DNA of 64,000 bases from the NCBI GenBank assembly GCA_020137815.1, contig CM035352.1, positions 7,812,001-7,876,000 of the forward strand. The letters are read 5' to 3'. The notes under the pieces are model-generated. The model made no database searches, was not told the DNA's origin, and saw only the letters and a list, made by a program, of their open reading frames with translations. Shown here piece by piece: positions 13,531 to 62,218 of the stretch. The DNA is from Hormiphora californensis. Lineage: Eukaryota; Animalia; Ctenophora. The first letter of the stretch is position 1. Every line of letters begins with the position of its first letter. A program made the translations under genes and the position numbers.

Positions 13531-13534
13531 AATA

Positions 13535-19940: not shown

Positions 19941-20045
19941 AAAAATTTTGGAAGTGAAAATTAAAAAAAAAAGTCACGTCACAAATCTATAGCCGGCCGT
20001 AGTCGCTTTTGACCGGCAATAACTCCCAGCCAGCAGGATAGAGGC

Positions 20046-20092
<47 letters not shown>

Positions 20093-20699
20093 AGGCGCTT
20101 AATTGAGTCTTATTATGAAGTGTGTGCACATGTGTGTGTGGGGGAGAACACACTCGCCTCTCCTTGGTGCCACGTGACTCGAGACACATGGTATTTCTTT
20201 ACCTGCCTCTCTCAGCTCAAATAAAATACACAAGCTACTAAATCTAGGGAAAGGCTTCATTTTAATAAACGGGTAACCACTAGTAACGAATCAATTGTGG
20301 TAGCACTGAATAATTTCTATAGAATTTGAAAAAAGTAGTTAAGCTGCAAAAGGCCAAATGGTTTACTCACATGACACATGCATTACTATACTGTTCAACT
20401 ACGCGAATCAAAGTGGCCATAAAATATGAGTTAGCTTTCAAACCAATAAAGCCTCTATTTAGGAACATAAAACCTATATATGTAAGACCCGGTATTGTCT
20501 AGATAGAGAGTTACGGCCCCGGCCCCTTGGTAATAACACATAGATGCTGCCCCCCCCACACATACATATAGTGAGATATGACAATCTGCAGTTTGAGTGT
20601 TCTTATACACTCACCCCGACCCCCAACCTCCTCCTCATGAGCTGGTGTGTCGTGGTGGTTCCATGTGAAACGAGAGAACTTTCTCTCTCTCTCTCTCTC

Positions 20700-36000: not shown

Positions 36001-39000
36001 ATAAAATACAGGACATCAGATATTACACTAACCTACACAGACTCCCTGCCACTCATAACTCCCCTCAGGACATGGTTGACAGATATTGCCCTGTAGAACA
36101 GTACCCGGTTCACACTGAACACAGCGACCTCTCTCCAACCTGTGTAGTGAGAATGAAAGTTGTCATCACGCGTGAAATATGACGTCACGCGTGAGATATG
36201 ACGTCACGTGGTATCACATGTCACGTGGTATCACGTGTCACGTCTCCACCAACCTGTGCTGGTCAGGACACCTCTCACAGGTCCTGGGGTCCAGGTAGAA
36301 TGAGAAGGAGGGACAATCACACTGACCACTCTCCTTATCACACACTGGATCTGATCCAACACACTGACAAGCATCACAGTTGTCACCATAGTAACCATCA
36401 GCACAGACAGTACATTGTCGGTCCTCGTAGTTGTCGGGACAGTCACACTGTCCCGTAATGACGTCACAGGTTCCGTCATATGCAGCAGGACCACAGTTAC
36501 ATCTTGTACATTCTCTACCGTAGTAACCCTCCTGTGGGGGGGGGGCGGTGTTAACATTACCCTGGTAACCATGGTAACTAAATCTAGTAACCAAGAAATA
36601 TGGTAACCATTGTATGGTATGTATTTAACTTTAGTAACCAAGAAACATGGTTACCTTGGTGACCAAGAAACATGGTAACCCTGGTAACTAAGATCCCTTA
36701 CCGCACACTCAGTACAGGCATCCCCGGTAAACCCTGTAGCACAGGTGCAGTCTCCAGTCCTCACGTCACATGATGTAGTTCCCGCGTCTTCAGGGTTACA
36801 CTGGCACTCTAGTGGGGTGGTAATTTGTTAGGAGAGGAGGTTAGGGTTTACACTGGTCACTGACACTCCATTGGAGGGATCTCGAGGGTCATTACCCCAA
36901 TACCCTATAATTATCAATTAGGGTAATTACTAAGTATTAATTAGGGTAATTACTAAGTATTAATTAATTACCTGTACACTGATAGTTATCAAAGAAGGTT
37001 CCCTCCAGACAGTATCTACAGGTACTACCTGTGATGACCTGATACTCAGGACAAACCTTACATGTCCTCTCGTCAACATAGGGCCTGTCACCTGGAGAGA
37101 GAGAGAGAGGATATCAGGGATATGAATAGTCACTGGAACTACCGAGAGCATAAAACTATGATAACCATATCTGTTACCATTGAAACAGGAGCAACAAGAA
37201 CTCACCCCTGCAGGGACACTGCCCATAGGAATCACACCGGCCATGTCGACTGTGGTCTGGATCACACCCACATTCAACACACAACCTTCCCTTCTTGTAG
37301 TACCCTGCCTGATAGAGAGAGAGATTGTTATCAAGTTTGTTACAACTTACAGAAGTGTGGTTACCATGGTTACTATTTATTACAGAAGGGTGTCACGGTA
37401 AATACCATTTATAATCGGTAAAAACCTTCTCACTTTGACCAACCTAATCTCTAAAAACTTTCCCATTTGGACCCAACTAATCTCTAAGAAAATTTCCCAC
37501 CTTAACCCTCCTAATCTCTAAGAAACTTTTCCACTTTGACCCACCTAATCTCTAAGAAACTTTGTCACTTTGATCTACCTTATCTCTAAGAAACTTTCCC
37601 ACTTTTACCCACCTAATCTCTAAGAAAATTTCCCACTTTGACCCACCTAATCTCTTAGAAACATTCCCATTCTGACCCACCTAATCTCTAAGAAACTTTC
37701 TCACTTTGACCCACCTTATCTCTAAGAAACCTTCTCACTTTGACCCACCTTATCTCTAAGAAACCTTCTCACTTTGACCCACCTTATCTCTAAGAAACCT
37801 TCTCACTTTGACCCACCTTATCTCTAAGAAACCTTCTCACTTTGACCCACCTTATCTCTAAGAAACCTTCTCACTTTGACCCACCTTATCTCTAAGAAAC
37901 CTTCTCACTTTGACCCACCTTATCTCTAAGAAACCTTCTCACTTTGACCCACCTTATCTCTAAGAAACCTTCTCACTTTGACCCACCTTATCTCTAAGAA
38001 ACCTTCTCACTTTGACCCACCTTATCTTTAAGAAACCGTCTCACTTTGACCCACCTTATCTCTAAGAAACCTTCTCACTTTGACCCACCTTATCTCTAAG
38101 GAACCTTCTCACTTTGACCCACCTTATCTCTAAGAAACCTTCTCACTTTGACCCACCTTATCTCTAAGAAACCTTCTCACTTTGACCCACCTTATCTTTA
38201 AGAAACCGTCTCACTTTGACCCACCTTATCTCTAAGAAACCTTCTCACTTTGACCCACCTTATCTCTAAGAAACCTTCTCACTTTGACCCACCTTATCTC
38301 TAAGAAACCTTCTCACTTTGACCCACCTTATCTCTAAGAAACCTTCTCACTTTGACCCACCTTATCTCTAAGAAACCTTCTCACTTTGACCCACCTTATC
38401 TCTAAGAAACCTTCTCACTTTGACCCACCTTATCTCTAAGAAACCTTCTCACTTTGACCCACCTTATCTCTAAGAAACTTTCTCACTTTGACCCACCTTA
38501 TCTCTAAGAAACCTTCTCACTTTGACCCACCTTATCTCTAAGAAACCTTCTCACTTTGACCCACCTTATCTCTAAGAAACCTTCTCACTTTGACCCACCT
38601 TATCTCTAAGAAAATTTCCCATTTTAACCCACCTAATCTCTAAGAAACTATGGTAACATTTACCTCACAAGAGTCACATTTATCGCCGGTGTAACCCGCT
38701 TCACAGTCGCACACTCCAGTAATACTGTCACAGGTCTGGTCAACAGATCCCACTACACTACACTCACAACCTGGGGGAGGGGGACATGTCATTTCAACGA
38801 ATCTAAATAACTGGTTTAGATAATGTTGATGATATAATGGTACAGTCGGACCCCGATTTAGTGGCCCCCGATTTAGTGGCACCCCGATTTAGTGGCAGGA
38901 TTTTTTTCCCCCAAAAATTTTTTTTGATTTTTTTTGAAAATTTTTCAAAGGAATACCAGCCACGTCCGAATCGTGTTTCGAATCAGTGAATCTTATCACA

Positions 39001-42000
39001 TGTCCTGCTGCTAATTAGACGGTTTGGAACGAACCGATATATGATCCCCATGGGGGCCATTGAATCATAAGTTCACCAAGCGTCAAAATTTCGATTCGAT
39101 GGGGATCACGTTTCGATTCGTTCCGAACCGTCTAATTAGCAGCAGGAAATGCGATAAGATGCACCGATTCGAAACACGATTCGGACGTGGCTGGTATACC
39201 TTTAAAAAATTTAAAACTTTTTTTGCAAAATTTTACAGTACGATTGTCAATGCTTTGATCAGTGCTCCCCATAAATTTTGAGAGAAAAAGTTATTTTGAA
39301 ATTTTGATACTTCCTCACCCGCTTAGGGTGCCCCGATTTGGCATGGTATCACGTATCGGTTCGTTTCGAACCGTCTAATTAGCAACAGGACATGCGATAA
39401 GATGCACTGATTCGAAAAACGATTCGGACGGGCTGGTATAACTTAGAAAATTTTTCACAATTTTTTTGAAAAATTTATTTGATAGTTTTCTATTTCTAAT
39501 CAGAAATGATCATGTAATCAATACATAAATATTGCATATAACAGTTAGAGGTGTCTTTAGTCTTAGTATAGCATTTTGGGCATAAAATAGGTTTTTATGG
39601 GCCAAATATGGCTCGCCCCGATTTAGTGGCACCCCGATTTAGTGGCAGGATTTCTTTCCCCCGAGGATGCCACTAAATCGGGGTCCGACTGTAGTTGATA
39701 GGCCATTACAACACTGAGTCATTGTTGCTGGAACAACAAAATGTTGGTATTCCCAAAGGGAAGAACAGGAAATCTGTCACTTACTAGCACAAACACCATC
39801 TCTCAGGTAGGATTCATCTGGACAGTAGTTGCACTGGTTGTTCTCAATGAATGACCCTTCTGGACACTTTTCGCACTGCCCGTCTCTTACCACCTGACCA
39901 AGACAGGGTGGGTTGAACGGGGGGACGGTGGTGGGATGTATAGCAAGACAGGATCGGTTTTATATCAAGGGGAGAGGGATGTATACTTTGTATAGTAAGG
40001 CGACGTGCTTTAACAAACAAATCAGGAGAAACTGTCATGTATAACTGAGATAGTTAGATATGGTGATGACCATAAAAACACAGGCCTACCTCTGGGCTTG
40101 CCAGCACAGTAATTACCACCCATGACTTACAAGGTTTTCAGGGCAGGTATCGCACGTTCTGGGATCCTTGTAGTAGGCAATGGATGTATCACAAGGGCAC
40201 TGTCCTGTCCTCTCATCACATTGACTATCCTGACTAGTCTCAGGATTACAGTTACATGCCTCACACTCTCCAGAGGCAGAGGAACGGTAGAAGTTCTCCT
40301 GGGAATGGGAGGGGGAGAGGGGGTGAAGTTAGGGAGACTGAAAGATAGAGAGGGGAAGACTGAAAGGGACTCCCGGGAGGGAGGTATAGTTCATTGTTGA
40401 TCAAGGATCATGTTGATAAAATGACGGTTTAGTGTCTGTCATCCAAATGAGGGTGCAGTAGTGTTTGACAGTGGGTAAGTTGCAAATAAGGGTAGTCTGA
40501 CAGTGTCCTTCAAATGAGGGTGCTGCAGTATTCACCTGGCAGTGCTCACAGCGGGGTCCCCTGTAGTTATCGAGACAGGCACACTCTCCAGATACAGGAT
40601 TACACACATTATCCACGGACCCAACCCCGTCACACTCGCATTCTGAAAGGAATTCAGGGTTTGTAAGAGTTCTAGAGAGCTCTCCGAACTCTTCCTCCCT
40701 GCCTCCGATAATGATCTGTAGGGACTGCAACGCTTTACCGAATTCCAATGGAGCTACGTACAAGTAGGGCAGTAACAATTCTAAACGAGGTACCTTGGCA
40801 AGAACCGTCCCTGAACCAGGTTCCATCTTGACAGTAGGTACATCTGTTGTCCTCAACAAAGGATCCTGCAGGACACCGTCTACACTCCCCATTAACCAAC
40901 ACCTGTAGAAAGTATAGTAGAGGTACCACTGTCTGAACATTGGCCTGACAGGGTTACCATGGAAACATGGGGTTACATCAGCTGTGGTTCGTAACCACTG
41001 GTTACACATTCAAGCATCCATGTGCCCCCATCCTAACCCCTGTGCCCCCTCCCTAGCCGCTATGTCCCCACCCCTGTGCCCCCTTCCAGCCCCCCATGTG
41101 TTCCCCCTTTCTTACACTGTCATCCCCCCATGTGTTCCCCCTTTCTTACACTGTCATCCCCCCATGTGTTCCCCCTTTCTTACACTGTCATCCCCCCATG
41201 TGTTCCCCCTTTCTTACACTGTCATCCCCCCATGTGTTCCCCATTTCTTACACTGTCATCCCCCCATCTGTTCCCCCTTTCTTACACTGTCACCCCCCAT
41301 GTGTTCCCCATTTCTTACACTGTCATCCCCCCATCTGTTCCCCCTTTCTTACACTGTCATCCCCCCATGTGTTCCCCCTTTCTTACACTGTCATCCCCCC
41401 ATGTGTTCCCCCTTTCTTACACTGTCAGCCCCCCATGTGTTCCCCATGTGTTCCCCCTTTCTTACACTGTCATCCCCCCATGTGTTCCCCCTTTCTTACA
41501 CTGTCATCCCCCCATGTGTTCCCTATTTCTTACACTGTCATCCCCACATGTGTTCCCCCTTTCTTACACTGTCATCCCCCCATGTGTTCCCCATTTCTTA
41601 CACTGTCATCCCCCCATGTGTTCCCCCTTTCTTACACTGTCATCCCCCCATGTGTTCCCCCTTTCTTACACTGTCATCCCCCCATGTGTTCCCTATTTCT
41701 TACACTGTCATCCCCACATGTGTTCCCCCTTTCTTACACTGTCATCCCCCCATGTGTTCCCCATTTCTTACACTGTCATCCCCCCATGTGTCCCCCTTTC
41801 TTACACTGTCATCCCCCCATGTGTTCCCCCTTTCTTACACTGTCATCCCCCCATGTGTTCCCCCTTTCTTACACTGTCATCCCCCATGTGTTCCCCCTTT
41901 CTTACACTGTCATCCCCCCATGTGTTCCCCCTTTCTTACACTGTCATCCCCCCATGTGTTCCCCCTTTCTTACACTGTCATCCCCCCATGTGTTCCCCCT

Positions 42001-45000
42001 TTCTTACACTGTCATCCCCCCATGTGTTCCCTATTTCTTACACTGTCATCCCCCCATGTGTTCCCCCTTTCTTACACTGTCATCCCCCCATGTGTTCCCC
42101 CTTTCTTACACTGTCATCCCCCCATGTGTTCCCCCTTTCTTACACTGTCATCCCCCCCATGTGTTCCCCCTTTCTTACACTGTCATCCCCCCATGTGTTC
42201 CCCCTTTCTTACACTGTCATCCCCCATGTGTTCCCCCTTTCTTACACTGTCATCCCCCCATGTGTTCCCCCTTTCTTACACTGTCATCCCCCCATGTGTT
42301 CCCCCTTTCTTACACTGTCATCCCCCCATGTGTTCCCCCTTTCTTACACTGTCATCCCCCCATGTGTACCCCCTTTCTTACACTGTCATCCCCCCATGTG
42401 TTCCCCCTTTCTTACACTGTCATCCCCCCATGTGTTCCCTATTTCTTACAATGTCATCCCCCCATGTGTTCCCCCTTTCTTACACTGTCATCCCCCCATG
42501 TGTTCCCCATTTCTTACACTGTCATCCCCCCATGTGTTCCCCCTTTCTTACACTGTCATCCCCCCATGTGTTCCCTATTTCTTACACTGTCACCCCCCCA
42601 TGTGTTCCCCCCCTTTCTTACACTGTCATCCCCCCATGTGTTCCCTATTTCTTACACTGTCATCCCCCCATGTGTTCCCCCTTTCTTACACTGTCATCCC
42701 CCATGTGTTCCCCATTTCTTACACTGTCATCCCCCCATGTGTTCCCTATTTCTTACACTGTCATCCCCCCATGTGTTCCCCCTTTCTTACACTGTCATCC
42801 CCCCATGTGTTCCCCCTTTCTTACACTGTCATCCCCCCATGTGTTCCCCCTTTCTTACACTGTCATCCCCCCATGTGTTCCCCAATTTCTTACACTGTCA
42901 TCCCCCCATGTGTTCCCCCTTTCTTACACTGTCATCCCCCCATGTGTTCCCTATTTCTTACACTGTCATCCCTCCCATGTGTTCCCCCTTTCTTACACTG
43001 TCATCCCCCCATGTGTTCCCCATTTCTTACACTGTCATCCCCCCATGTGTTCCCCCTTTCTTACACTGTCATCCCCCATGTGTTCCCCATTTCTTACACT
43101 GTCATCCCCCCATGTGTTCCCCCTTTCTTACACTGTCATCCCCCCATGTGTTCCCCCTTTCTTACACTGTCATCCCCCCATGTGTTCCCCATATCTTACA
43201 CTGTCATCCCCCCATGTGTTCCCCATTTCTTACAATGTCATCCCCCCATGTGTTCCCCCTTTCTTACACTGTCATCCCCCCATGTGTTCCCCATTTCTTA
43301 CACTGTCATCCCCCCATGTGTTCCCCCTTTCTTACACTGTCATCCCCCCATGTGTTCCCTGGCACTGATGTTATCAAAGGTTGTCCCCCCACCAAGTCTT
43401 GTACGCTATTCCACCCCAAGATTTGCAAGTACAACCGGAGAGGAGAGGCCTGCCCAGATTTTGTTGCTGACAAGCGGAGCTGCACCCATTCTCATGTTAC
43501 CTCCGTGCAGCAAAAACCTCCCGTTAAAACTGCAGAAAGTCGCGTGGTCCAGCACAGCGTACCCCAAACAGATCCCCTTTTTCGGAACCGCAGCTTAGAA
43601 GAGTCCATCAGGGATATCCCTCACCTTATGAGGGGATCACGCAACTGCCACCAATCTGCTCCCATCAACTCCAGGGTGCCCCCTCCCCAGCAAACCAATC
43701 CCATAATTGCACCTCCCCATCGGGACGACTCCATGGCGCCCCCTCCCCAGCAATTCAACCCCATGGCGCCCCCTACCCAGCAGTTCAAACCCACCAAGCC
43801 CCCTCCCCAGCAGTACAACCCCACAGCTGCATCTCCCCATTGGGACGACTCCATGGCGCCCCCTACCCAACAATTAAACCCCATGGCGCCCCCTCCTCAA
43901 CAACTCAACCCCATGGCGCCCCCTACCCAGCAGTTCAAGTCCACCATGCCCCCTCCTCAACAGTTCAACAACATAGCGCCCCCTCCTCAGCAGTTCAACA
44001 CCATGGCACCCCCTACGCAGCAGTTCATCCCCACGGTACCTCCTCCTCAACAGTTCATCCCCACGGTACCCCCTCCTCAACTGACCTATCACACGGTGCC
44101 CCTTCAGCAGACCTGCCCAACGGCACCACAGCGGTACAATACCACATTTCCCCCTCCTCAACTGAACTGCCCCCTTGCACCACCTCCTCCAGAGTATACC
44201 ACGGTGCCCTACCCCCCACAGTTCCATACCACAGTGCCCCCGACCCATCAATACAGCCCTATGATACCTCCTCCCCAGCAGTACTGCAACCCACAACAGT
44301 ACGACGCCATGGTACCTCCTTCTCAACTGTACAGCACCATGGTACCCTCCCAACCTGCTTGTTACCCACTTCCGACTTCGGTCCAGCCAGGGGAAATAAC
44401 AACATATCATCAGGTCATAGCAATTCCGAGGACGTCTCCCTTCTTCCAAACACCATCAATGTTCGGTCTACAACCCCCAACCAACCCTATTCATCCTTAC
44501 TATTGTTAAATGCTGGGACTGGAGGCTTGAACACGGCTGCAGGAAGCAAAAATGAATGGAAGATGGAAGCGCTTCGTATGATGGTAGAGGACGAGGCGGC
44601 ATCCAATCACTCCATTCCCTTCATTCTTGTCTCCGAATCATGGTTCAAGTCCTACAACAGAGGGTCCTCTGTCGCTATTCCGGGATACTCTCTTTACAGG
44701 GCAGACCGTGACAGAAGGATCGGTGGCGGCGTTGCCCTCTTTGCCCATGAAAACCTCCCGGCTACATCCACCTTACAGTTTGACAATTCTGTTTGTCAGG
44801 GAGTAATTTGCTATTTCCAAACTATCAAATGGTGTGTGGCTGTCTTCTACAGGCCTCCTAGTGCTACTCTGCAGGAGTTTACCGAACTAATAGATTTTGC
44901 TCGGAGCTCCTTAGCTGACCTGCCAGATGATTCAACCATCGTTTTTGGAGGTGACCTTAATTTCCCTGAAATCGACTGGGATTCTCTCTCACTGAATTTC

Positions 45001-48000
45001 AACAATCGTGGAAACTCAGGCGCTGCTAGTATTCTGTTTGAGCTCATGTCAGAGTTCTTCCTGACCCAGGTGATTGATACGGCGACTAGAGGTAACAACA
45101 TTCTGGACATACTCTTGACTAATCGCCCCACGCTAGCGACTAGAATATCAGCTACCGACACTCGCATGTCTGATCACCGGTTGGTTGATGTTGCTCTCTC
45201 AGTGTCTCCGTCACTATCAGACAGGGAACACCAGTATCCTCCCATCATTGGATTCCGAGCTCTAGATTTTAATCGTGGTGACTTAGACAAACTCAAGAAA
45301 CCAATCTCTGACTTTGACTGGGCTGGACTTCAATCGTCCACGTCACCTGAATCCTTCCCCGAACACTTCACCAGAGCGCTCCTTCAGATCTGCCAAGATC
45401 ACCTCCCCCTCAGACGCCCTACATCTGGAAGACCTAAAGTGTGCAATGGTATTCGCCGGAGAAAAGGACGCGTCAAAGCAAAGATAGCTGCTCTCATGTC
45501 CCTCCCTACTTCTAACCAAGCTGCTCTCAGTTCAGCCCAGAGAAAACTCGTTGCCCTAGAGGAAGAAATGGCCCAGGCAATCGTGAACAGAATTGAGTCT
45601 CGTGAACAGAAGGTGATCGGAAACTTAAAACTAAATCCCAAAGTTTTCTTTAATTACGCTAAATCACTTAACCGGCTCGATTCATCCATCAAGCTACTCT
45701 TTGACCCTGATGGCTCTGCAGTCACTGACCCTGTAGGCTATGGCAGACCTCCTCCAGTCTAAATTCTCTTCCTCCTTCAGTGATCCTAATGCTGAAGGCC
45801 TTCAGTGGACTGCCCCGGAAACAGTACCTCAGTTCCCTTTCCCTGACATGTTACAGACTGACATTCATGCCGATATCATAACTGTCCTGAAAGACCTGAA
45901 ACCCTAGTTCCGGATCTGGCCCTGATGGTATACCTGCTCTACTACTTAAACACTGCTGTGTATGAACTCGCTACTCCCCTATCAATAATTTGGAAAACGT
46001 CACTTGAAATTAAGAATAGTCCCTAGTGTTCTACAAACGGGCCACGATATTACCTCTCCACAAGAAGGGTCCCACATCTGACCCTGGTAACTATCGGCCT
46101 ATTTCCCTGACGTCACATGTTGTCAAATGCTTTGAAAGGGTCGTCAGAAAGCATTTTGTGGACTATGTCGAGAATAACAACCTACTTTCCCCTAACCAGC
46201 ACGGTTTCCGTAGTGGGAAAAGTTGTCTGACACAACTTCTAGACCATCTAGGTGATGTTACAGATGGTCTTATAGAAGGTGTAGCTACAGACACCATCTA
46301 CCTGGACTATCAAAAAGCTTTTGATTCCATAGACCATAACCTTCTGCTGAAGAAACTTCATGCTTATGGATTCCCACCATTAATTGTTGACTGGATATCA
46401 TCTTTCCTTTCCGGTAGAACACAAACTGTTACTGTCCAAGGAGCTAGTTCCAGACCTATTACTATCATCAGCGGTGTTCCCCAAGGGACCGTTCTGGCTC
46501 CTATTCTTTTCATCCTTTTTGTGAACGACCTGGATTTGGCGATATCTCATTCAAAGGTTGGTCGCTTTGCTGACGATACCCGACTTAGCAAGAGGATCAG
46601 TTGCCAGCAGGATGTCCTGGATCTTCAGGAGGACCTCGATGCTACTTTAACATGGTCCTCATTCAACAACATGAAACTACACCCGAATAAATTCGATCTA
46701 CTCATCTCAGAGCCCTTCAATGAAAATCGGTCACTCCTTCGTCATCTCCCTTTCATCGACAATTTTAGGAAGTACGTCCTCCCTGATGATGGCCTGTTAG
46801 AGGAGAAGGAATTTGTCAAGGACCTGGGTTTCACTGTTCAATCCGGCCTTTCTGGTTCTCAGCATATATCCAATCTGGCTAGCCAGGGCAAGAAGATGGC
46901 AAGCTGGGCTCTTAGTGTTTTCCGGGCCAGGGATAAGACAACTATGCTTACCCTTTACAAAGCCCTCGTCAGAAGCCACTTAGAATATGTGTGTCCTCTC
47001 TGGGATCCTTACACCCTTGCAGACATTAGGACTCTTGAAAGTGTTCAGCGCTCCTTCGTTGCCAAAATTGAATCAGCTGGCACCGACTACTGGGATCGGC
47101 TTTCGAACCTTGGTATAATGTCTCTACAGAGACGCCGAGAGCGATACTCAATTATCCATTGCTGGAAGATTCTTCACGGCCTAGCTCCTGGCTCCATAAA
47201 GTTCAATCCTACCTCTCCAAGAGGCATCCGTGCGGTGTATCCCCCTCCTCCTGATCGTAACACTTCTACTAAACGCTCTCGTACGCTTTACGAAAACAGC
47301 TTCTCGGTGAAGGCCCCTAAGCTATGGAACACTCTACCTGCACGTGTTACATTAGCGTATCCTCTAACATCGTTCAAGACTGCACTCCAAAGACACCTCG
47401 ATACAATTCCTGATCGTCCACCTATCGATGGTTATACTGCAGTAAACAATAATTCCTTACTTGATTGGTGGCGTATGGGTGGTTCTATGCAAAGGATGGC
47501 CTAGTGGATCTAGAGGATCTACTAAAACTCTCAAAGTAACCAAAGTAAGTAACCTTTCTTACACTGTCATCCCCCCATGTGTTCCCCATTTCTTACACTG
47601 TCATCCCCCCATGTGTTCCCCCTTTCTTACACTGTCATCCCCCCATGTGTTCCCCCTTTCTTACACTGTCATCCCCCCATGTGTTCCCTATTTCTTACAC
47701 TGTCATCCCCCATGTGTTCCCCCTTTCTTACACTGTCATCCCCCCATGTGTTCCCCATTTCTTACACTGTCATCCCCCCATGTGTTCCCCATTTCTTACA
47801 CTGTCATCCCCCCATGTGTTCCCTATTTCTTACACTGTCATCCCCCCACGTGTTCCCCCATTTCTTACACTGTCATCCCCCATGTGTTCCCCCTTTCTTA
47901 CACTGTCATCCCCCCATGTGTTCCCCCTTTCTTACACTGTCATCCCCCCATGTGTTCCCCCTTTCTTACACTGTCATCCCCCATGTGTTCCCCATTTCTT

Positions 48001-51000
48001 ACACTGTCATCCCCCCATGTGTTCCCCCTTTCTTACACTGTCATCCCCCCATGTGTTCCCCTTTCTTACACTGTCATCCCCCCATGTGTTCCCCATTTCT
48101 TACACTGTCATCCCCCCATGTGTTCCCCCTTTCTTACACTGTCATCCCCCCATGTGTTCCCCCTTTCTTACACTGTCATCCCCCCATGTGTTCCCCCTTT
48201 CTTACACTGTCATCCCCCCATGTGTTCCCCCTTTCTTACACTGTCATCCCCCCATGTGTTCCCCCTTTCTTACACTGTCATCCCCCCATGTGTTCCCCTA
48301 TTTCTTACACTGTCATCCCCCCATGTGTTCCCCCTTTCTTACACTGTCATCCCCCATGTGTTCCCCCTTTCTTACACTGTCATCCCCCATGTGTTCCCCC
48401 TTTCTTACACTGTCATCCCCCCATGTGTTCCCCCTTTCTTACACTGTCATCCCCCCATGTGTTCCCCCTTCTTACACTGTCATCCCCCCATGTGTTCCCC
48501 ATTTCTTACACTGTCATCCCCCCATGTGATTCCCCCTTTCTTACACTGTCATCCCCCCATGTGTTCCCCCTTTCTTACACTGTCATCCCCCCATGTGTTC
48601 CCCATTTCTTACACTGTCATCCCCCCACGTGTTCCCCCCTTTCTTACACTGTCATCCCCCCATGTGTTCCCCCTTTCTTACACTGTCATCCCCCCATGTG
48701 TTCCCCCATTTCTTACACTGTCATCCACACCCCACCCCTGTGTCCCCTTCCAGCCCCCCATGTGCCCCCATCCTAGCCCCTATGTCCCCAACCCTGTGCC
48801 CCCATCCTAGCCCCCATGTGCCCCCATCCTAACCCCTGTGTCCCCTTCTAGCCCCCCATGTGTTCCCCCTCCTGTGTCCCCTTCTAGCCCCCCCCCATGT
48901 GTTCCCCCTCCTGTGTCCCCTTCCAGCCCCCCATGTGTTCCCCATTTCTTACACTGTCATCCCCCCATGTGTTCCCCCTTTCTTACACTGTCATCCCCCC
49001 ATGTGTTCCCCATTTCTTACACTGTCATCCCCCCATGTGTTCCCCCTTTCTTACACTGTCATCCCCCCATGTGTTCCCCCTTTCTTACACTGTCATCCCC
49101 CCATGTGTTCCCCCTTTCTTACACTGTCATCCCCCCATGTGTTCCCCCTTTCTTACACTGTCATCCCCCCATGTGTTCCCTATTTCTTACACTGTCATCC
49201 CCCCATGTGTTCCCCCTTTCTTACACTGTCATCCCCCCATGTGTTCCCCCTTTCTTACACTGTCATCCCCCCATGTGTTCCCTATTTCTTACACTGTCAT
49301 CCCCCCATGTGTTCCCCCTTTCTTACACTGTCATCCCCCCATGTGTTCCCCCTTTCTTACACTGTCATCCCCCCATGTGTTCCCCCTTTCTTACACTGTC
49401 ATCCCCCCATGTGTTCCCCCTTTCTTACACTGTCATCCCCCCATGTGTTCCCCATTTCTTACACTGTCATCCCCCCATGTGTTCCCCCTTTCTTACACTG
49501 TCATCCCCCCATGTGTTCCCTATTTCTTACACTGTCATCCCCCCATGTGTTCCCCCTTTCTTACACTGTCATCCCCCATGTGTTCCCTATTTCTTACACT
49601 GTCATCCCCCCATGTGTTCCCTATTTCTTACACTGTCATCCCCCCATGTGTTCCCCCTTTCTTACACTGTCATCCCCCATGTGTTCCCCCTTTCTTACAC
49701 TGTCATCCCCCCATGTGTTCCCCCTTTCTTACACTGTCACCCCCCATGTGTTTCCCCCTTTCTTACACTGTCATCCCCCCATGTGTTCCCCCTTTCTTAC
49801 ACTGTCATCCCCCCATGTGTTCCCCCTTTCTTACACTGTCATCCCCCCATGTGTTCCCCCTTTCTTACACTGTCATCCCCCCATGTGTTCCCCCTTTCTT
49901 ACACTGTCATCCCCCCATGTGTTCCCCCTTTCTTACACTGTCATCCCCCCATGTGTTCCCCCTTTCTTACACTGTCATCCCCCCATGTGTTCCCCCTTTC
50001 TTACACTGTCATCCCCCCATGTGTTCCCCCTTTCTTACACTGTCATCCCCCCATGTGTTCCCCCTTTCTTACACTGTCATCCCCCCATGTGTTCCCCCTT
50101 TCTTACACTGTCATCCCCCCATGTGTTCCCCCTTTCTTACACTGTCATCCCCCATGTGTTCCCTATTTCTTACACTGTCATCCCCCCATGTGTTCCCCTA
50201 TTTCTTACACTGTCATCCCCCCATGTGTTCCCCCTTTCTTACACTGTCATCCCCACAGGCACCACACCGGACTGGATCCACAAAGGGTCCATTGTCCCGG
50301 ATACAGGGGCACTGTCCGGTGACCTTATCACACACGTTACTCTCAGAGTTGTCCGGATCACAATTACAAGTTAGACACCCCTCATCAACATTATAGAATC
50401 CATCCTGGAGTGGGGATGTGCAATGTTAGGGAATTATGGAGAAGGGAGGTGCAACATTTCAGACAACTTGGGACTTTGATTCTCCCCGAAATAGAGGATA
50501 TATCGGGGGCGGATACCATACCTTACAAGATCCACACTTGATACCCTCGTGACGTTCCTTACAGACACATTGACCAGATAGGGCGTCACACTGGGGGCTA
50601 CTGGACCCAATACGGAAACAACCACAATCTGAAACACACAGGGGCTACTCAATATGACACATTAGGAAATGGGTATGGGTTGGCTGATTTAGGATCAGTT
50701 CACCCAACAAGTAGCACACCAGCTCCCCCTCCACACAGTCAACCTCCCTCCCCTCCCCTATTCCCCATATTACCTCCCCCTCATCCCTTCTTACCTGTAC
50801 ACTCTCCATTAGCCAGGTATGTTGAGGGGGGACAAGTTGCACACCTCCTCCCTCCACACCTCCTCCTTCCCTCCCCTCCCCTATTCCCCATATTACCTCC
50901 CCCTCCTCCCTCCTTACCTGTACACTCTCCATTAGCCAGGTATGTTGAGGGGGGACAGGTCGCACACCTCCCCCTCCACACCTCCTCCTTCCCTCCCCTC

Positions 51001-53306
51001 CCCTATTCCCCATATTACCTCCCCCTCATCCCTTCTTACCTGTACACTCTCCATTAGCCAGGTATGTTGAGGGGGGACAGGTCGCACACCTCCCCCTCCA
51101 CACCTCCTCCTTCCCTCCCCTCCCCTATTCCCCATATTACCTCCCCCTCATCCCTTCTTACCTGTGCACTCTCCATTAGCCAGGTATGTTGAGGGGGGAC
51201 AGGTCGCACACCTCCCCCTCCACACCTCCTCCTTCCCTCCCCTCCCCTATTCCCCATATTACCTCCCCCTCATCCCTCCTTACCTGTACACTCTCCATTA
51301 GCCAGGTATGTTGAGTGGGGACAGGTAGCACACCTCCTCTCATCCACATACACCTCCCCCTCCACACAATCGCACTGACCACTATTGTCACATGCTGCTG
51401 ACTCGTCATATGTATTTTTAGTGACACACCCACACGGTACACACCGCCCTCCTGATAGATACTGGTCATCTGGACACTTCTCACAACTGAAATTGAGGGG
51501 GGGGGGGAGGTATAGAGATTACTAAATTAGGATCAGTGGAATATGCGAGTGGCAAGGTAATTGTCTGTTCTGCTAGTGTTTCTGTAGTGACTAATTATGT
51601 AGGCTGTAGGGACATATCAATGGGGACTATCACAAAGGGAGGTTATCAAGACTCACGTTCGTTCGTTAAGGTATTCCAGGCCTGGCTGGCAGTTACACTG
51701 TCCTGTTTCCTTATCACATACATCAGATAACGAATAGGTGGGATTACAGGCGCACTTTCTACACCCAGCACTCACATCATAATATCCATCCTGATGGATA
51801 TAGAGTTGTTACGACTTACGAAGTCACCCCTATTATTGCTAGCGCAGAGGGGGAATTTCATTACCAAAGATAAAGAAGGGCTTGTTACTCAACCCACTAC
51901 TCAACGAAGGACCGGTTTAGTTGCAGCAATTTACGACTAACTGTATAAACGCTGGTAGCTGTAGGACGGATCACGACAATTGGGACATTAGTGGTGGGTA
52001 TAGTAACCCGTTTTATCTATTTATCGTTTACCTGGCATTGGTCACATTGAGGTCCAGTAAATTTGCTCCTACAGTCACACTCTTGGGTGACTGGGTCACA
52101 TTGCTGACTCTTTGAACCCTCCAAACTACACGCACAATCTGCAGAAGGAGGTGTGTCAGGAGGTCTGTATACTATACAGACCTGTATAGTTTGGGAGGGT
52201 GCAGCTGTGTTATGAGTTCTTTGGGAGGGCGGTAATGATAATTTTGAAACTTTCTAGAGGGGATCCAAGATCTATAAGTCTAGTCCCAAATCATTAAAAA
52301 CTACAGTATAATAGAAGTTGTATTACAACGAAAAATAAAAGTTACCGTAGACGCTGATTACTGCGAATTTCCGGATAATGATCCCCATGTATCTGATATT
52401 AGCGGAGTATTTTAGAGTTCCCGTCACCTCGCCAACAAAGATCTCAGAGATAAGTTCATACTGCTCATCAACCGGCTCCCTGCGGAGGCATTATGAGGGG
52501 GTGTTGAACACACGTGATCTGAGTAACGCATATGATCTGAGTAACGCGTGATCTGAGTAACGCGTGATCTCAGTAACGCATGATCTGAGTAACGCGTGAT
52601 GAGTAACGCGTAGTTAGTGACGCGTGATGGGTAACGCGTGATAAGTAACCGCGAAACATTGCACTTACAAGGTATCAGTTACTGAGTGTCCGTCAATTTT
52701 ACATTTCCTAGCAGTACAGGGTGTCCCCTTGTACCTCCAGTCCACACCCCTGCTGGGTTTTTGTTGCAAACCGTAGAGGAAGGCAGTGAGGGTTACAATG
52801 TCCCCCCTCTGTACAGAGATGGAGGGTACATCGAATGCTGCAGAGGGTAGGAGGATATGTTTTAGTAAATCAGACAATCATAGTCCTATAATTCTCCTGA
52901 TGTAACCTAGGAGGTTCTTGCTCGTGGCAGGCCCTCTTTTCAGGCCAGATAACACATGTACTAATTGGTGATCTAGTGTGTGGGGCATGTACTTGAGTGG
53001 CATTCATCTAGAGTGGCATGCCGCATGATCCACCCTGTACTTACAGATGACCTCAACGTTAGCCACCGTATCCTGTATCACGTCCCCAAAGACCATCCTA
53101 CAGGTGTATTCAGTGTCCTCCCGGGGTTGGATGGTGAGGGAGAGGAAGGTTTGTTCCTCAATAACATTAGACCCACATTCCTCACTCACACACCCATCAG
53201 GTCCTAACCAGTAGACTTTGTCAGGTAGGATGGAGGGGTTGTCAAGGGCACATGTCACTGTTCCTGTCTCCCCTTCTTCAACTACTATGTCATTAGCCTC
53301 AGCCAC
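33074..53306 (-). CDS. Cysteine-rich extracellular protein B: two Ig-like domains, many laminin-EGF-like repeats, C-terminal TSP1-like domain; ~25 exons
   Basis: Ig-like exons ~53306-53044 (VTCALD..VYW..LSLTI...DTEYTC) and ~52836-52345. LE exons such as CECDPIGSASEVCNKRTGQCPC and CECSVVGSVDQTCDSITGVCDCEAGYTGDKCDSC with GT-AG borders. Last exons ~33473-33346 and 33160-33074 end ...ERPCNACA*. Start codon not located; the region 33480-34110 is not resolved. Confidence 0.8.
37435..38648. repeat. 34-bp intronic minisatellite, ~35 copies
   Basis: Unit TTTGACCCACCTTATCTCTAAGAAACCTTCTCAC, homogeneous core and degenerate edges. Confidence 0.97.
38843..39691. mobile_element. Longer (~850 bp) CAGTCGGACCCCGA-family non-autonomous element
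   Basis: TA-flanked TIRs, subterminal CCCCGATTTAGTGG repeats, internal inverted segment ~38950-39200. Confidence 0.85.
41090..43359. repeat. 34-bp satellite, left block (~67 copies)
   Basis: Unit CATGTGTTCCCCCTTTCTTACACTGTCATCCCCC. Confidence 0.98.
43360..44509 (+). CDS. LINE ORF1, C-terminal part (Cys/His zinc-finger-like plus Pro/Gln-rich repeats)
   Basis: C..FHPKIC..G..C..C..H motif followed by MAPPPQQFNP repeats; 5' end missing. Confidence 0.75.
44490..47504 (+). CDS. LINE ORF2: AP endonuclease plus reverse transcriptase, frameshifted at ~45735-46025
   Basis: APE motifs SESW, GYSLYRADR..GGGV, YRPP, GDLNFP, TRGNNILD, SDH; RT motifs NYRPISLTS, QHGFR, YLDYQKAFD, GVPQGTVLAP, FADDT, YKALVRSHLEY. 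Confidence 0.93.
47553..50254. repeat. 34-bp satellite, right blocks (~70 copies), interrupted at ~48725-48930
   Basis: Same unit as 41090-43359; runs directly into the exon end at 50243-50254. Confidence 0.98.
50730..51345. repeat. 122-bp tandem repeat (~5 copies) containing exon end and splice donor
   Basis: Repeated ORF starts 122 nt apart; unit includes ..TYLANGECT(G)|GTAAG on the minus strand. Confidence 0.95.
52511..52650. repeat. ~16-bp degenerate tandem repeat
   Basis: GTGATCTGAGTAACGC variants. Confidence 0.85.
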
Positions 53307-54011: not shown

Positions 54012-57000
54012 CTAACCGAATCCAACCAGTCCCAAACTCTTCTTAAGTCGTCTACTAAAGTTATCACACTCTCCCCCAGTACATTCCTCCGTCTGGATAT
54101 TGGGGTTGGAGCAGTCTTCAGTGTTGGGGATGGTGTTGTGGTCACCGGTAGCTGGTTCTATCTTGTATTGGTACCGCATCTTGATACATCTACCTTCCCT
54201 GATCTGGCAGTCAGACCATTCCGTCCAGGGTTCTAGCCTACAGGCTCCTGGTACAATATGGGTTAGATATTGGAGAAATACTGGGCTCGAGATGCTGCAC
54301 TTTAAATACCACGGGTAGAGTTGTTAATTGAGTTACTCAACAAGGGGTGGAGTAGAGTTGGTATCACCATGTCGTAGAAACAGAAACACATCACGGTATG
54401 AAGACAATTCCCCAAGCAGCGGCTTTAGCAAACAACGAGGAACTCCACGCGGAGTATACGGGCAGCAACTATAAAAACAAGAAGGCTTCACAAACCAGGG
54501 AAAAGGCAGCTTCATGAAACTTCACAAACAAAGCAAACCCAAACGAAAACGGACAGAAATCTATATTATGTCCCCCAAAACAACACCACTTTGTACACAG
54601 CTTTCACACACTTTTAGCTTATCACTCAGCTTTAAATCACACCACATTTCACTCACAGATGTTCACGCATCACACACAGCTCTGTTCACACTGTACTTAC
54701 TTGTGTCACACTTGGTGCCGACAATACCAGGATTACAGTCACATTTTCCCTCGTAGGTTGAACAGTTGTAACGCTGCGAACCGGTCTCGTGGCATCCACA
54801 ATCTGGGGGGGGGGGGATGTAACATGGTAATCATGGTAACTTACCAACACACTCCCTAGTAACCATGGTAACTTACCAACACACTCCCTAGTAACCATGG
54901 TAACTTACCAACACACTCCCTAGTAACCATGGTAACCATGGTAACTTACCAACACATTCTCTAGAAACCATGGTAACTTACCAACACACTCCCTAGTAAC
55001 CATGGTAACTTACCAACACACTCCCTAGTAACCATGGTAACACTTACCAACACACTCCCTAGTAACCATGGTAACACTTACCAACACATTCCCTAGTAAC
55101 CATGGTAACTTACCAACACACTCCCTAGTAACCATGGTAACACTTACCAACACATTCCCTAGTAACCATGATAACTTACCAACACACTCCCTAGTAACAA
55201 TGGTAACCATGGTAACACTTACCAACACACTCCCTAGTAACCATGGTAACTCACCAACACACTCCCTAGTAACGGGATCCAGATATTCATGGAACATAAA
55301 GTTATCCCTGCACCCGTCACACGTTCTCCCCTCGTATCGTGTCCTTCCGGGGATACACTCACACTGTCCAGTAATCTAGAGGGATGGGGTTCATGTAGAG
55401 CTGTCACACAAACAAAGTGGGTAACGCACTACACCAGTACACCACGCGTGATAAGTAATGCGTGACACCACGTGTGATAACTAACGCGTGATTAGTAACG
55501 CGTTAAATGAGGTATACCTGGTCACATTTCTTGCTCTTGTTGATTGTTCCCCATGGGTTGCAGTTACACGGCTTACATCCCTCACCACTGTTGATGCCAT
55601 AGGTATCACCCTGACAAAGAATAAGGTTGTTAGGCTCTCACTGTAATATCGCAAACGGTGCTCCAATTTGAGAGCTATTTATACCACTATGTATATACCA
55701 CTAGGTAGGATCCGAAAAACAGAAACAGATCAAATGTTATCCTCCTCCTACTTGCAGCTATACCTCGCATTGAGAACAGTCCCGCCCAGTAACACCGTCC
55801 AGACAGAAGCACTGTCCGGTCAGGTTATCACATGTTGAGTTAACACTTCCACCCTCATTGCAACCACATGCTGCAAGATAGATAGTGTGTTACAGGGTGT
55901 TGCTTAGTAATTGAACCACCTCATTATTTGCATCAGGAACCTCCAAATAATCACAGCATGAACAGCGCTATAAAATCACCCTGTACATCAACATGTGGTT
56001 ACCACCCCGGCTAACCATGATGTCATACTTTACACATGTATTGTCATATTGTCACTCAACAAGGCTAGCTGCTGACGTCATTACTCACGTATGCACTGTC
56101 CATTATACTGGTAAGTTCCCTCCTCACAGGTGGTACATGTCCTGGGATCACTGTAGATAACTCCACTCTTACAGAAGCACTGCCCACTATCATCACACGT
56201 AGCTAGACCACCCAGAGTGTACATTGTGTTACAATTACACGGCTGACACCCGCTGATCAGATCGTAATATCCGTCCTGTAAAGGGGGGGGGGTAGTAGTA
56301 TTCGTCCTAAAATAATGGGGGGGGGGTAGTAACATTCGTCCTAGAAGTAAAAAAGCGGGGGTGAGTGGGTTGGTTTAGTAAAATCCAGTGGGTATAGAGA
56401 AAGGGCCAATGGGTGAGAGAAGAAGACGATTCGTGTAATATGTGAGGAACAGAAAGAATAACATTATTTAAATACGATCCCTGTTTCGTACCTGGCATTC
56501 ATCGCATTTGATTCCCATTGCCCCCACCCTGCAGTCACACGCCCCATCCATGAAACAGAGGTCTGATTCTGAGCCGTACGGGTTACATCCACAATCTAGA
56601 AAGGGGGACGGTGGTGGTTCGGTAAAATAGCCAATAGGGGGTGAGCGATTTTAAATTCATCCATGGGTTGGTTAAGCGGTTTTCAACAGATAATCACTTA
56701 CCCCAACACTCCCGGTTATAAGGGTACTGATAAGGTCCACAAGGTTCACATCTCCTAGGGTCCAGGAAATAGAAGTTGCTCTCCTCGATACAGTTGCACT
56801 GTCCAGTTGTAACATCACACCACCCATCGGCCTGGTAGGTGCCACTACCGTCACAGCCACATGGGATACAACCAATGGCACCGGCATCACCGAACCAGTT
56901 ACCGTTCTGGGGTGGGGGAGTGAGTTATTAGGGTTCTAGGGCGGGCGGGAAGTGGGTGGGGAGGGGGTTAGAAACTAGTTACCGTTCTGTGAGGGAGGGG

Positions 57001-60000
57001 AGGATTGGGTTAGAAACCAGTTACCGTTCTAGGGGAGGGGGGGTTAGAAACCAGTTATTAGGGTTCTAGGGCGGGCGGGAGGTGGGTGGGGAGGGGGTTA
57101 GAAACCAGTTACCGTTCTGGGGAGGAGAGGAGTGGGTTAGAAACCAGGGGGCCGGGGGAATCCTAGCTGGGGGGGGGGGGGACTAGCCGCTAGATTCAAT
57201 TTTACTAATTTATTTCAAAATACCTCGCATTGGTCGCACTTCTTCCCGGAGACTCCATCAGCACAGTAACAGCTACCATCGGCAGTGCACAGATTAGAGG
57301 TAGATCCACGGGGATCACAGCCACAAGCTAGGTAGAGGGAATTAGGTTAGAAACAGCCAGAGTTGGTGAACTATTTCGGTGCCAAAATATATTTGGAGCT
57401 CTGATGGAGGGTTTTAATTTGTATCAGCTATATCAACTCACGTGTACACTGTCCATTAAGTGAGTACATGCCATCAGGGCAGCCAGTACAAGTCCTGGGA
57501 TCGATAGTTCCATATCCTGGTTTACATTGGCACTGCCCGAACATGTCACACACCGCAGAGACTGAGCCATCAGGATCACATTGACAGGGAATACACTCCT
57601 GGATCCCCACAATGTTCAGTCCATAGAAACCAGGCTGAAATATGAGGGAGTGTTACCATGGTGACATAGTGGCCGTTAGGGTTGGTTACCATGGTTGCAC
57701 GATAATACCAAAACACCTCGATATACCATAACCTGTCCTCGGTAAATCAATAAGAAGTATGAACGCAACACATGGACGGTGTTCATGTTCTCAGTTATGT
57801 TCTGTGTTCATTGGACCCAACTCACCTCACATTCGTCACAGCTATCTCCCATGACATTGGGTCCACAGTCACACTTCCCAGTGTACAGGTCACACTTCTT
57901 AGCGTCGATAGATCCCCAGGGATGGCACGGACACGCTGGGGAGAGGGTGGGGTTAGGGGTGGTGGGGAGACGATAGGGATCAGGGTAGGAGACGTTAGAG
58001 AGGGTGGGCACGGTGTCCCTTAAGGAGGTGAAACCTCGGCTAGATAAAGTATTTTGGAGACCGGACCTAGGTTACGTATTTTTGACCGAGGAATCCGAAA
58101 AACATAAAATTAAAATCGAAAACGTAGCGGTTTTTGCGTAAAACGGCAAAAACTGTCATTTTTCAGCGATTTTCGACTTTTTACGCTTTCTAGAGATTTT
58201 AAAAATATTTCCTTTCAAGATATGATCTTGTGCTTCTAGACTAATAAAATACAATCGATTTGCTACAAATTGGTCCCGGGTTTGTGTGATTTGGTCAAAA
58301 GGTCTCTTTACTGTGGCCCATCAAAGATGGCCACTCTGCAAATACGTTTTTGGCTCCTGTGGCCGCAGTTGTGGACCAAACGAAGATTTTTTATACACCA
58401 AAATTTGCGTCTTCTCAAGGCGAACAACCTGGTTTTTACGACATTCCATTTCATGCAGGCGTTCAAAAATTACAGCAGAAAAACTGGCACAGTGGATTTC
58501 GGAAATACCCCTACTTCAACAAACCCTAATCCAGATGAGATTTCAAAAAACATACATCTTCATACATGAAAATGAAGCTCAGACAAATGCCAACGTGATG
58601 CAAAAAACGGGAAGTGTCTAACTTATTTCGTTTAGAAGCTATAGCCAAAATAAAAGTACTTATATTTGCCTTGAAAACACCTTCTAAAAGCCCTGAAAAA
58701 CAGCAAATCTGTCTAAAAATGCAATACGAATAAAATGTCACCTCCAGTACACCAACTTAGTCCCCTGTGGACAGAATTTGATTGAAATTGTCAGAAATTG
58801 TCTAAAAGTATGGTTTTTAGAGGGTGTTTTCAAGGCAAATATAAGCACTTTTACTTTGGCTATAGCTTTTAAACGAAATAAGTTAGACACTTCCCGTTTT
58901 TTGCATCACGTTGACATTTGTCTGAGCTTCATTTTCATGTATGAAGATGTATGTTTTTTGAAATCTTATCTGGATTAGGGTTTGTTGAAGTAGGGGTATT
59001 TCCGAAATCCACTGTGCCAGTTTTTCTGCTGTAATTTTTGAACGCCTGCATGAAATGGAATGTCGTAAAAACCAGGTTGTTCGCCTTGAGAAGACGCAAA
59101 TTTTGGTGTATAATAAATCTTATTTTGGTTTACATCTGCGGCCACAGGAGCCAAATACGTATTTGCAGAGTGGCCATCTTTGATTGGCCACAGCAAAGAG
59201 AGCTTTCGACCAAATCACACAAACCCGGGACCAATTTGTAGCAAATCGATTGTATTTTATTAGTCTAGAAGCACAAGATCATATCTTGTAAGAAAATATT
59301 TTTAAAATCTCTAGAAAGCGTAAAAAGTCGAAAATCGCTGAAAAATGACAGTTTTTGCCGTTTTACGCAAAAACCGCTACGTTTTCGATTTTAATTTTAT
59401 GTTTTTCGGATTCCTCGGTCAAAAATACGTAACCTAGGTCCGGTCTCCAAAATACTTTATCTAGCCGAGGTTTCACCTCCTTAAGGGACACCGTGTGGGG
59501 AGACGTTAGGGAGGATGGGAGACGTTAGAGATCGGAGGGTGGGTACTGGGTAATACCACTGGGTATTAGAGAAACATGGTTGAATTCAACCAGCTCCAAC
59601 CAGTGGTACTCTCCTATGTACTACTTACATGTGCAGCCGATGGGGTTGGATGAGGTCTGATAGAATCCGGGGGGACACCCATCACACGTTCTAGAGTTGA
59701 CCTCAGTGAAACCAGTTGAACAGTCACACTGGCCCGTTACAGAGTCACAGGGTTCTGGGTCTGCGGGCATTCCGTAGGCGTTACAGTTACAGGGCTCACA
59801 ACCACCGGGCTGGAAGTTGTAATAGCCAGGCTGAAAGAGGGAGGGGGTTACAGTTACAGGGCTGGAAGTTGTAGTAGCCAGGCTGAAAAGGGCGTTTAGG
59901 GTTTTAGAGTTAGGGGAAAGATGGGGTTAAAGGGGAGGGGCAAAAAGTACCCGGGGGCCGGGTATGTTTATCATAACGATATTCAATAATTAGAGAAACC

Positions 60001-62218
60001 CAAAAGAGAGGCAAAAGTCAACACGTTCCTACCTTGCAGGTATCACACTTGAGACCCTTGACGGTAGGTTGACACATGCACTGACCAGTAGCATCACACT
60101 GTACCGAGATAGATCCCCATGTGTTACAGTTACAGGCTGAAATTAGAATCTGTGCAGTTACTGGGGCTGGTAAAATTATTAATGCTTACATAAATGGGGT
60201 ATAACTTGGTATCGAACTAAATTATTTAGCACTGATATTACAGTCCGAAAAATCTTGCATAAATTGGTATAATATGCAGCTATCATAAATCCTGTCTAGG
60301 TGCTAATTAACTGCACGTGTGGTGCACAATGAACTGTGTTGGCGATGTGCCAGACTCACGTGTACACGTTCCTGGGATGTCGCTATACCATCCCATCTGA
60401 CAGCCACTACATGTTCTGGAGTCTGTGAAGATGACATTGCTCCTACAGGGGCACTGTCCTGACTCCAGATCACACTGGAGACTTAGAGAGTTCTGGGGGT
60501 CACAGTTACACGGGAGACACTGTCCGAGGGTGGAGAGTCCGTAGGTACCAGGCTGAAATATAGTCAGTTTTAGTAGTTGAAACACCATGTAATCACTGCG
60601 CTGGCAAGCGCAGAGGTGGCTCCATTATTATAATATGAGGTTTTGCTTTTGTGTAGCCCTTTGAGTTTCACCATGCATGGAATGAAAATGTGATATTCCA
60701 TCACTAGGAACATGTTCAATATTATGTCCCCTAAGTACTCGGAATGTCATGCTTTGGTGGTCATGACCCATGTGTGTGTTGAAAAGAGAATTACAGACGG
60801 AAATAACCCAGTAAAAAATCCATTAGGAATTGGGTTGTGATAAGAATTCAATGAATTGAAAGTATTTATAGAAACCAAGAAATGTGATTCTAAGTGGGTC
60901 GGCGGGGTGATGTACCTGGCATTTGTCGCACTTGGCTCCGTATACATTGGGCCCACAGTCACACTGTCCAGTGTACAGATCACACTGCTTAGAAAGTGAT
61001 CCATCGGGGTCACAATTACAATCTGGGAGGAAGGGAAGGGTTAGCTACTGCAGGGGATGTACCATGGTAACTACAGGGGTGTGTTACCATGGTTACCATT
61101 AGTATAGTTACCTTCACAATCAGATTCCCCATCATTCAGGTTGATGACCAGGTTCATTGAGAGAGTCTGTCCCTCTGGACACCCGTCACACTTCCTGGGA
61201 GTAAAAACACAATAATCTTTGGTATATAAACCCGGCTCAGATATAACCCGGATAACCAGTATCTTGTCATAAAATAACTCAAACCCGGAAAAAGATACCC
61301 TGAGAAAGAAACCCGGATATTGATACCCGGATATAACACTGCGAGAGATCAGTATCTTACTTGTAGTTGCCTTGTTTGTGGGTACTCTTACAGGGACAAT
61401 AACCGTTCTGATCGCACTGTGTGGCTCCACCAATGGTTCCATAAGGGTTACAGTTACACGGCTCACAGTACCCTTGTAGTAGACCGTAGTGGTCGGGCTG
61501 GGGTGGATGAGGGGTTAGATCGGGCTGGGGTCGGGTGGGGCTAGATCGGGTTAGGGGTGGGGTTAGATCGGGCTGGGGTTGGTATAGGGGCCGGGGTTAG
61601 AAATTTCTCTCTATCTACCTCGAACATCACCCCACTCCCCATCCCAGTAGTCAGTACCTACCTCAAACCACCCTCTCCAATCCCCATCCCAGTTATACCT
61701 ACCTCACACTCATTGCACTTGATGCCAGTGAAGTTTTCTTTGCACTCGCACTCCCCCTGACTGTTGCACCGTTCCGTTCCCTGACTATCACAACCACATG
61801 GTTCACATTGACCCGTGAAGGCGTCAAAGAAGGTGTTATCTGGGCACGCCGCACACGTCCTGCTGTCCGTGTAGTCGAGATTCTTCTTACAGTTACACTG
61901 ACCTGCGAGAGAGAGGGTGGGGTTGTTTCAGTAATACCGCTACGGAGCTAGGGTTTTTCCTAGAATTGAATGACGTTTCTTATTGTTCTAGAATTGCTTT
62001 CCGTTCTATGCCGGATATCTAAGTGAAATTGAATGAGTAAAAGGGCTAGAATCGTTGTTGTCAAGGTGATAGTCAATGATTGAATCGGTTGTCAGGGACA
62101 GTTCATGGTAGCCTTTAGTCTAGGAAAATGATACTGCAGAGAAGCTGTGTAAAATGATGAATTGAGAATTTTAGTCCAGACAGGGGCGGAAGGTGCAAAA
62201 GGAAGAGAGAAAAAGAAA

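Follow-up and report, generated by a model that had tools for sequence, protein, structure and literature searches.

We analysed a 64,000-nt stretch of the genome of the ctenophore Hormiphora californensis (assembly GCA_020137815.1, contig CM035352.1, positions 7,812,001 to 7,876,000; hereafter the window, in whose coordinates all positions are given). We focused our attention on one minus-strand intron of 9,340 nt (40903-50242), part of which is a minisatellite built from tandem copies of the intron's own 5' splice site (donor). The upstream coding exon (50243..50404, minus strand; 162 nt, phase 0/0) encodes a laminin-EGF module (PF00053, E 1.3e-4). This exon is open and ends in AGT/GTAAGA, with the donor GT at 50242-50241, and its last ~12 bases belong to the first repeat unit. 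The downstream coding exon (40794..40902, minus strand; 109 nt, phase 0/1) follows a CAG acceptor and was placed by a hand-built exon chain. This chain runs through the 50243/40902 junction, comprises 21 exons between 52138 and 33346, and encodes 1118 residues uninterrupted by a stop. A further block, of 17 exons, encodes 783 residues; none of the 38 modelled exons contains a stop or a frameshift. Pfam searches found laminin-EGF modules, an Ig-like exon (below the cut-off), and a GPS motif in the host, which is therefore predicted to be a laminin-EGF-rich receptor-like gene.

An earlier reading of the window, made from its letters alone (the sequence-only reading), had joined these two exons in phase 0. 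This join agrees with the stop-free exon chain, with an internal paralogue, and with an intronless orthologue. The paralogous exon pair (40298-40131 and 39893-39785) agrees in its phases and in the 109-nt length of its second exon. The orthologue (L001), a 998-residue open frame on an intronless 2,996-nt contig from a metagenome collection, is collinear with the gene model (49.7% over 1002 columns). It spans 18 modelled junctions, with an alignment gap within 8 residues at four of them and none at the 50243 junction, where P0133 is likewise aligned gap-free. In the read-through open reading frames (ORFs) P0136 and P0191-P0193, which lie on genomic contigs, similarity ends at the same residue as at the 50243 junction, and the frames go on with V-R or V-S, as expected of an intron that starts with GT-A-A/G. 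A relative and the internal paralogue appear to have the intron at this position too. These alignments show that the protein needs donor 1; splicing at that donor in this animal itself is the probable reading. Among the 28 metagenome loci there was no near-identical DNA, blastn matches coming from L003 only (73-81%), and protein searches by word index, one with the exon (96-2000 aa) and one that also included its read-through (34-111 aa), returned no candidate and hence neither a same-species transcript nor a second allele.

Tandem Repeats Finder called two 34-bp arrays in the intron, a 5' block (47553..50254, minus strand) and a 3' block (41090..43359, minus strand). A direct count in the assembled sequence gave exactly 140 GTAAGA donors on the minus strand, with 74 (the authentic one at 50242 among them) in the 5' block and 66 in the 3' block; the stretch between the blocks has none. 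Hence the ~140 near-identical donors that had been estimated from block length are matched by the count, and the composition of the 34-bp unit (the last ~12 exonic bases, the donor, and the first intronic bases) is as first described. The tandem unit straddles the exon/intron border, with the authentic splice site inside the first unit. The exact 11-mer ACAGT/GTAAGA is found at 138/140 donors and is absent from the plus strand; 136 of the 140 read AGT/GTAAGAAA, the downstream units being identical or near-identical donor repeats. Complete units match the consensus exactly in 72/137 cases (mean identity, 97.8%), and no 16-mer of the unit occurs elsewhere in the window on either strand. On the RNA strand the unit is G-rich, with a mean G4Hunter score of 1.32. 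The G4Hunter threshold is 1.2, and G-quadruplexes (G4) can drive repeat instability.

The array is real, but it accounts for only about half of the intron. A non-long-terminal-repeat retrotransposon (43360..47552, plus strand; PF14529, E 2.8e-10; PF00078, E 1.7e-33) lies antisense to the gene and takes up 4,193 nt, or 45% of the 9.3-kb intron that had been described as carrying a satellite. It has the layout of a long interspersed nuclear element (LINE), i.e., a 5' frame that is Cys/His-rich and then Pro/Gln-rich, an APE endonuclease (PF14529), a reverse transcriptase (PF00078), and a short tandem 3' tail, with the endonuclease and the reverse transcriptase encoded in different frames. The insertion is in register, within one 34-bp unit, and splits the array in two. 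The 5' block is further interrupted between donors 48952 and 48716, 236 nt apart, where the array's own G-rich 3' flank recurs in rearranged form (48717..48951, minus strand). The last donor copy and the unique 3' part of the intron (40903..41115, minus strand) likely represent the ancestral intron: removal of all copies but the last leaves 213 nt, against a local median of ~203 nt (the 20th and 21st of 40 introns measure 202 and 205 nt).

An assembly that inflates or distorts the copy number would leave the real array much shorter. The window does hold a ragged homopolymer stretch (~18050-21260) that resembles uncorrected long-read noise, and many of the unit variants are changes in G-run length. 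However, three substitution variants are interspersed through all three sub-blocks, as in homogenised units that undergo minisatellite turnover, and the longest run common to both sides of the LINE was matched by 187/200 shuffles and so gives no sign of a pasted block. In addition, the unique 4.2-kb LINE anchors both halves, each of <2.8 kb, and the 38 modelled exons are free of stops and frameshifts. The variant pattern is better explained by genuine turnover of a minisatellite than by blocks pasted in assembly, though the exact length is provisional given the noise elsewhere in the window, and we regard a much shorter array as very improbable.

We then considered which donor can yield the protein. 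Reading through from the exon meets a TGA after 9 codons, ahead of donor 2, and therefore every downstream donor carries this stop (139/139, with 44/139 in frame). The claim that only the first donor gives full-length protein thus stands. The unit contains no acceptor. On a matrix trained on 40 sites of the window, the highest-scoring AG within the array reaches -6.3, versus at least 2.6 for real acceptors. A close precedent is the 37-bp variable number tandem repeat (VNTR) in intron 7 of human F7, which has 5-9 copies; its first unit spans the border, and the most upstream donor alone is used (Borensztajn et al. 2006, PMC1557585). Up to 12 added units left first-donor use unchanged in mammalian cells (PMC1557585). 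Because of the tested behaviour of the F7 array and the orthologue spacing, which fits donor 1, strict or near-strict first-donor selection is the best-supported of the options that the sequence-only reading had left side by side; the others, a U1 small nuclear ribonucleoprotein (snRNP) platform and a dial linked to nonsense-mediated decay (NMD), were unsupported. Three other ideas were set aside: recursive-splicing (ratchet) sites, which call for a pyrimidine tract ahead of AG/GT, as the units read AGT/GT in a G-rich context and the best AG has the score given above; intron gain by duplication of an AGGT proto-splice site, as the unit lacks an acceptor and the intron position appears to be shared; and enforcement of the upstream donor by G-runs, as mutation of G triplets had no effect in F7 (PMC1557585).

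We suggest that the array is a tolerated, slippage-born minisatellite whose first donor is used and which was later split by an antisense LINE, and we give this reading a probability of about 0.74. In the proposed course of events, G-run microhomology 34 nt apart would have led to duplication of the junction in an intron of ~213 nt. An exonic run, TGTGGGGAT, matches a run of the original intron, TGGGGGGCT, at 7/9 bases and at a distance of exactly 34 nt, which is a plausible register for slippage. Unequal exchange or slippage would then have amplified the G-rich unit and produced the three interspersed variants, while the LINE landed mid-array and a copy of the flank was captured. As the assembled sequence stands, the exon and the first donor are undamaged, and a stop precedes each of the later donors. 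By analogy with F7, ABCA7, and lancelet genes, the spliceosome would commit to the most upstream donor beside a defined exon, and for this reason the array is likely tolerated. Any transcripts spliced at donor 2 or 3 would be removed by NMD, and the cost would therefore be small.

Several observations weigh against this reading. First, the authentic donor is weak (rank 39 of 40, with 6/11 matches to the U1 consensus), and a weak donor that faces 139 equal sites may ease competition or leak. Second, leak has precedents: among the arrays cited in PMC1557585 (25 pseudo-sites in IFI6, 15-20 in CBS, 10-15 in LMNB2, and 16-18 in PDGF), those of IFI6 and CBS leak to the second or third donor, and in ABCA7 the donor of the second unit can be used, so that one unit is retained and an NMD-sensitive premature termination codon (PTC) arises (PMC5954066, PMC13747324). 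Third, the F7 tests stop at 12 units and were done in mammalian cells (PMC1557585), and our orthologues belong to other species, in which the array is probably absent. Fourth, GTAAGA was hit by none of the 11 distinct substitution types, a weak hint of constraint (P=0.118, not significant). Fifth, an acceptor-like site at 43466 scores 8.42, against 8.35 for the real acceptor (left-out score), on the matrix from 40 sites and is placed 131 nt ahead of the first donor of the 3' block. Lastly, the survey of 40 introns described below covers one 64-kb window, which limits its enrichment result.

Some of these points would also fit a length-dependent drag or dial on expression, in which a measurable fraction of transcripts is diverted to NMD by donor leak, skipping of the next exon, or inclusion of a predicted 131-nt pseudo-exon derived from the LINE. 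The weak donor, the acceptor-like site, and the premature stop from all 139 downstream donors favour such an effect, as does ABCA7, in which one-unit retention is NMD-sensitive and skipping of exon 19 grows with array length (PMC5954066, PMC13747324). NMD itself, however, does not scale with array length in ABCA7 (PMC5954066, PMC13747324), and extra units were without effect in F7 (PMC1557585). Moreover, the score at 43466 was obtained with a matrix built from 40 sites, and unused AG sites are numerous in antisense LINEs; in this intron, 5/787 AGs attain the lower quartile of acceptor scores. We consider a drag of this kind unlikely, and the ABCA7 result leaves the NMD-linked dial of the sequence-only reading without support.

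The predicted pseudo-exon (43336..43466, minus strand; 131 nt, frameshifting and stop-containing) would run from the acceptor-like site in the antisense 5' end of the LINE to the first donor of the 3' block (43335), as scored by the window-trained matrix. If it were a poison exon, a neutral donor minisatellite and a transposon would together have built an NMD-coupled switch, the LINE insertion having reset the donor-scanning rule mid-array. On the same view, the choice of the first donor and the last acceptor would be a rule common to ctenophores and mammals, and border duplications of the type called mirages in lancelets would be present in ~1/6 of comb-jelly introns. We judge this larger scheme distinctly improbable.

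Selection for a U1 snRNP decoy or loading platform, which might for example guard a long intron against premature polyadenylation, would account for 140 intact GTAAGA motifs with none lost. Yet conservation of the donor letters does not detectably exceed that of the other bases in the unit (P=0.118), and the rank of the donor (39/40) and its 6/11 U1 match are poor for such a role. The gene strand of the intron holds no AATAAA and just two ATTAAA, both inside the LINE. An intron free of array and LINE would measure 213 nt and would need no protection. The read-through ORF of a relative has an intron start that differs in sequence, and junction duplications are no commoner than intronic ones, as described next. 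We regard a selected platform as remote. Telescripting was likewise rejected.

To place the array among its neighbours, we surveyed 40 introns of the window: 16 and 20 from the two exon blocks whose models are confident, plus 4 from a G-protein beta subunit (G-beta) gene. Introns between 54700 and 52139 and those 3' of 33346, for which there is no confident model, were left out. Copies of the intron's own donor were found in 5 introns and copies of its own acceptor in 3, for a total of 7 introns. Cross-intron control pairs gave 6/1560 (donor 14-mer) and 3/1560, and chance is excluded because the donor 14-mer of one intron recurs in another in so few pairs. Anchors placed 10-80 nt inside the intron are duplicated in 4-11/40 introns on the donor side (5/40 at the junction itself) and in 1-6/40 on the acceptor side, and anchors 20-60 nt inside exons in 0-1/40. 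Own-junction copies are thus far above cross-intron chance, yet no commoner than plain intronic duplications; the excess of repeats over junctions that the sequence-only reading had thought worth checking holds against cross-intron pairs but not against intron-internal anchors. The pattern fits a high local duplication rate that is filtered only by coding constraint. Since junction anchors are no more often duplicated than intron-internal ones and exon-internal ones rarely are, we take junction copies to be the tolerated edge of this rate and the 140-donor array to be the extreme of the distribution.

Two further donor arrays lie in the same gene. In a neighbouring intron, the exon end and donor 51283 recur in a 122-bp unit (x 5; 50723..51337, minus strand), which adds 4 extra donors, all behind a stop. 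At donor 55254, a 32-bp unit that includes the exon end is repeated 13 times (54827..55273, minus strand) and adds 12 extra donors, of which 3 are in frame and stop-free, and NMD therefore cannot hide their use. In this intron (54803-55254), four scored donor copies (GTAAGT) rank slightly above the first donor (GTGAGT). Donor 55254 hence offers a sharper test of first-donor choice. Single extra own-donor copies are seen at 61661, 35621, and, by eye, ~29038 (minus strand). Tandem copies of an intron's own acceptor and first exon bases lie upstream of the functional acceptor at 61498-61573, 59831-59883, and 56907-57117 (by eye also at 56275-56340), and the last copy keeps the frame.

A different account treats the locus as a damaged allele, i.e., a heterozygous, low-function variant in which array and LINE largely block splicing. 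An intron of ~45x the local median length with a weak donor would suit it, and high heterozygosity with non-coding indels is on record for a pleurobrachiid (PMC8527503). Against it, the coding exons are intact, the array is old enough to have diversified, with variants on both sides of the LINE, and lancelet mirages are said not to disturb splicing (PMC3087553, PMC3902484). We hold a damaged allele to be highly improbable, and a tolerated minisatellite with first-donor use remains our preferred reading.

The array belongs to a known class. Splice sites in tandem arrays had been called known in principle, and F7, IFI6, CBS, ABCA7, and the lancelet mirages are such cases in the reports cited here. 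The accompanying statement that no example on this scale was known does not hold, given the 25-bp VNTR in intron 18 of human ABCA7, which ranges from ~12 to ~427 donor-led units (10.7 kb) (De Roeck et al. 2018, PMC5954066; PMC13747324). Layout and scale are both already in print, and the present array is a large case. It resembles F7 in its border-spanning first unit, in the identical pseudo-donors downstream, in unit length, and in the G-runs of both. F7, in contrast, has 5-9 copies, no LINE, and experimentally demonstrated first-donor use, whereas here there are 140 LINE-split copies and first-donor use is what we infer. Like the present array, that of ABCA7 extends from the authentic donor onwards with a donor-like GT heading each unit, and use of a later donor gives a PTC. 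It starts at the GT, however, whereas here the unit also copies ~12 exon bases, and length effects on expression and exon 19 skipping have been measured there. Lancelet mirages (Adh3, TnC, globin, and PGBD5) are donor and acceptor border duplications that reportedly leave splicing undisturbed (PMC3087553, PMC3902484). They share with our survey minisatellite-like copies of both borders across genes (here at 5 donors and 3 acceptors among 40 introns) but differ in scale and setting: 3-6 units of 150-160 bp in the globin examples, as opposed to 140 x 34 bp, split by a retrotransposon, in a ctenophore. Our literature search met no report of junction-spanning repeats in ctenophores or of an array split by a LINE, which argues only weakly for their absence; the accessible parts of PMC8527503 mention no junction repeats, and those of PMC10078293 give no junction-spanning example.

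The locus is not a new kind of element, larger cases being in print (ABCA7), and its interest is modest: it is a natural minigene in which 139 equal competitors face a weak donor. The lineage is far from mammals, in which 5'-to-3' donor selection was tested, and RNA counts would extend the rule to ctenophores. Such arrays can also mislead gene finders, a warning for annotators.

The window contains other repeats and genes of note. Minisatellites that touch no modelled splice site lie at 37422-38648 (34 bp x 36) and 9625-10118 (62 bp x 8). Long inverted-repeat inserts, resembling by eye miniature inverted-repeat transposable elements or foldback elements, are found at ~58010-59490, 38840-39690, 13530-15140, and 11480-11720, two of them in introns of the laminin-EGF gene. 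At about 54250-53040 (minus strand), an exon-like, thrombospondin-like stretch ends in a stop and is followed by Ig-like exons (by eye); it may mark the boundary of two tandem paralogues or an alternative 3' end. A GPS motif (PF01825) at 25775-24920 (minus strand) is followed only by about two hydrophobic segments and a stop (by eye), not by a full seven-transmembrane domain. Finally, the five-exon G-beta gene, which served for taxonomic placement and points to a pleurobrachiid ctenophore, lies at 7714-5645 (minus strand). One of its exons is 99% identical to P0001, in whose cluster there is a protein labelled Pleurobrachia bachei; against a protein from Mnemiopsis the identity of this exon is 76%.

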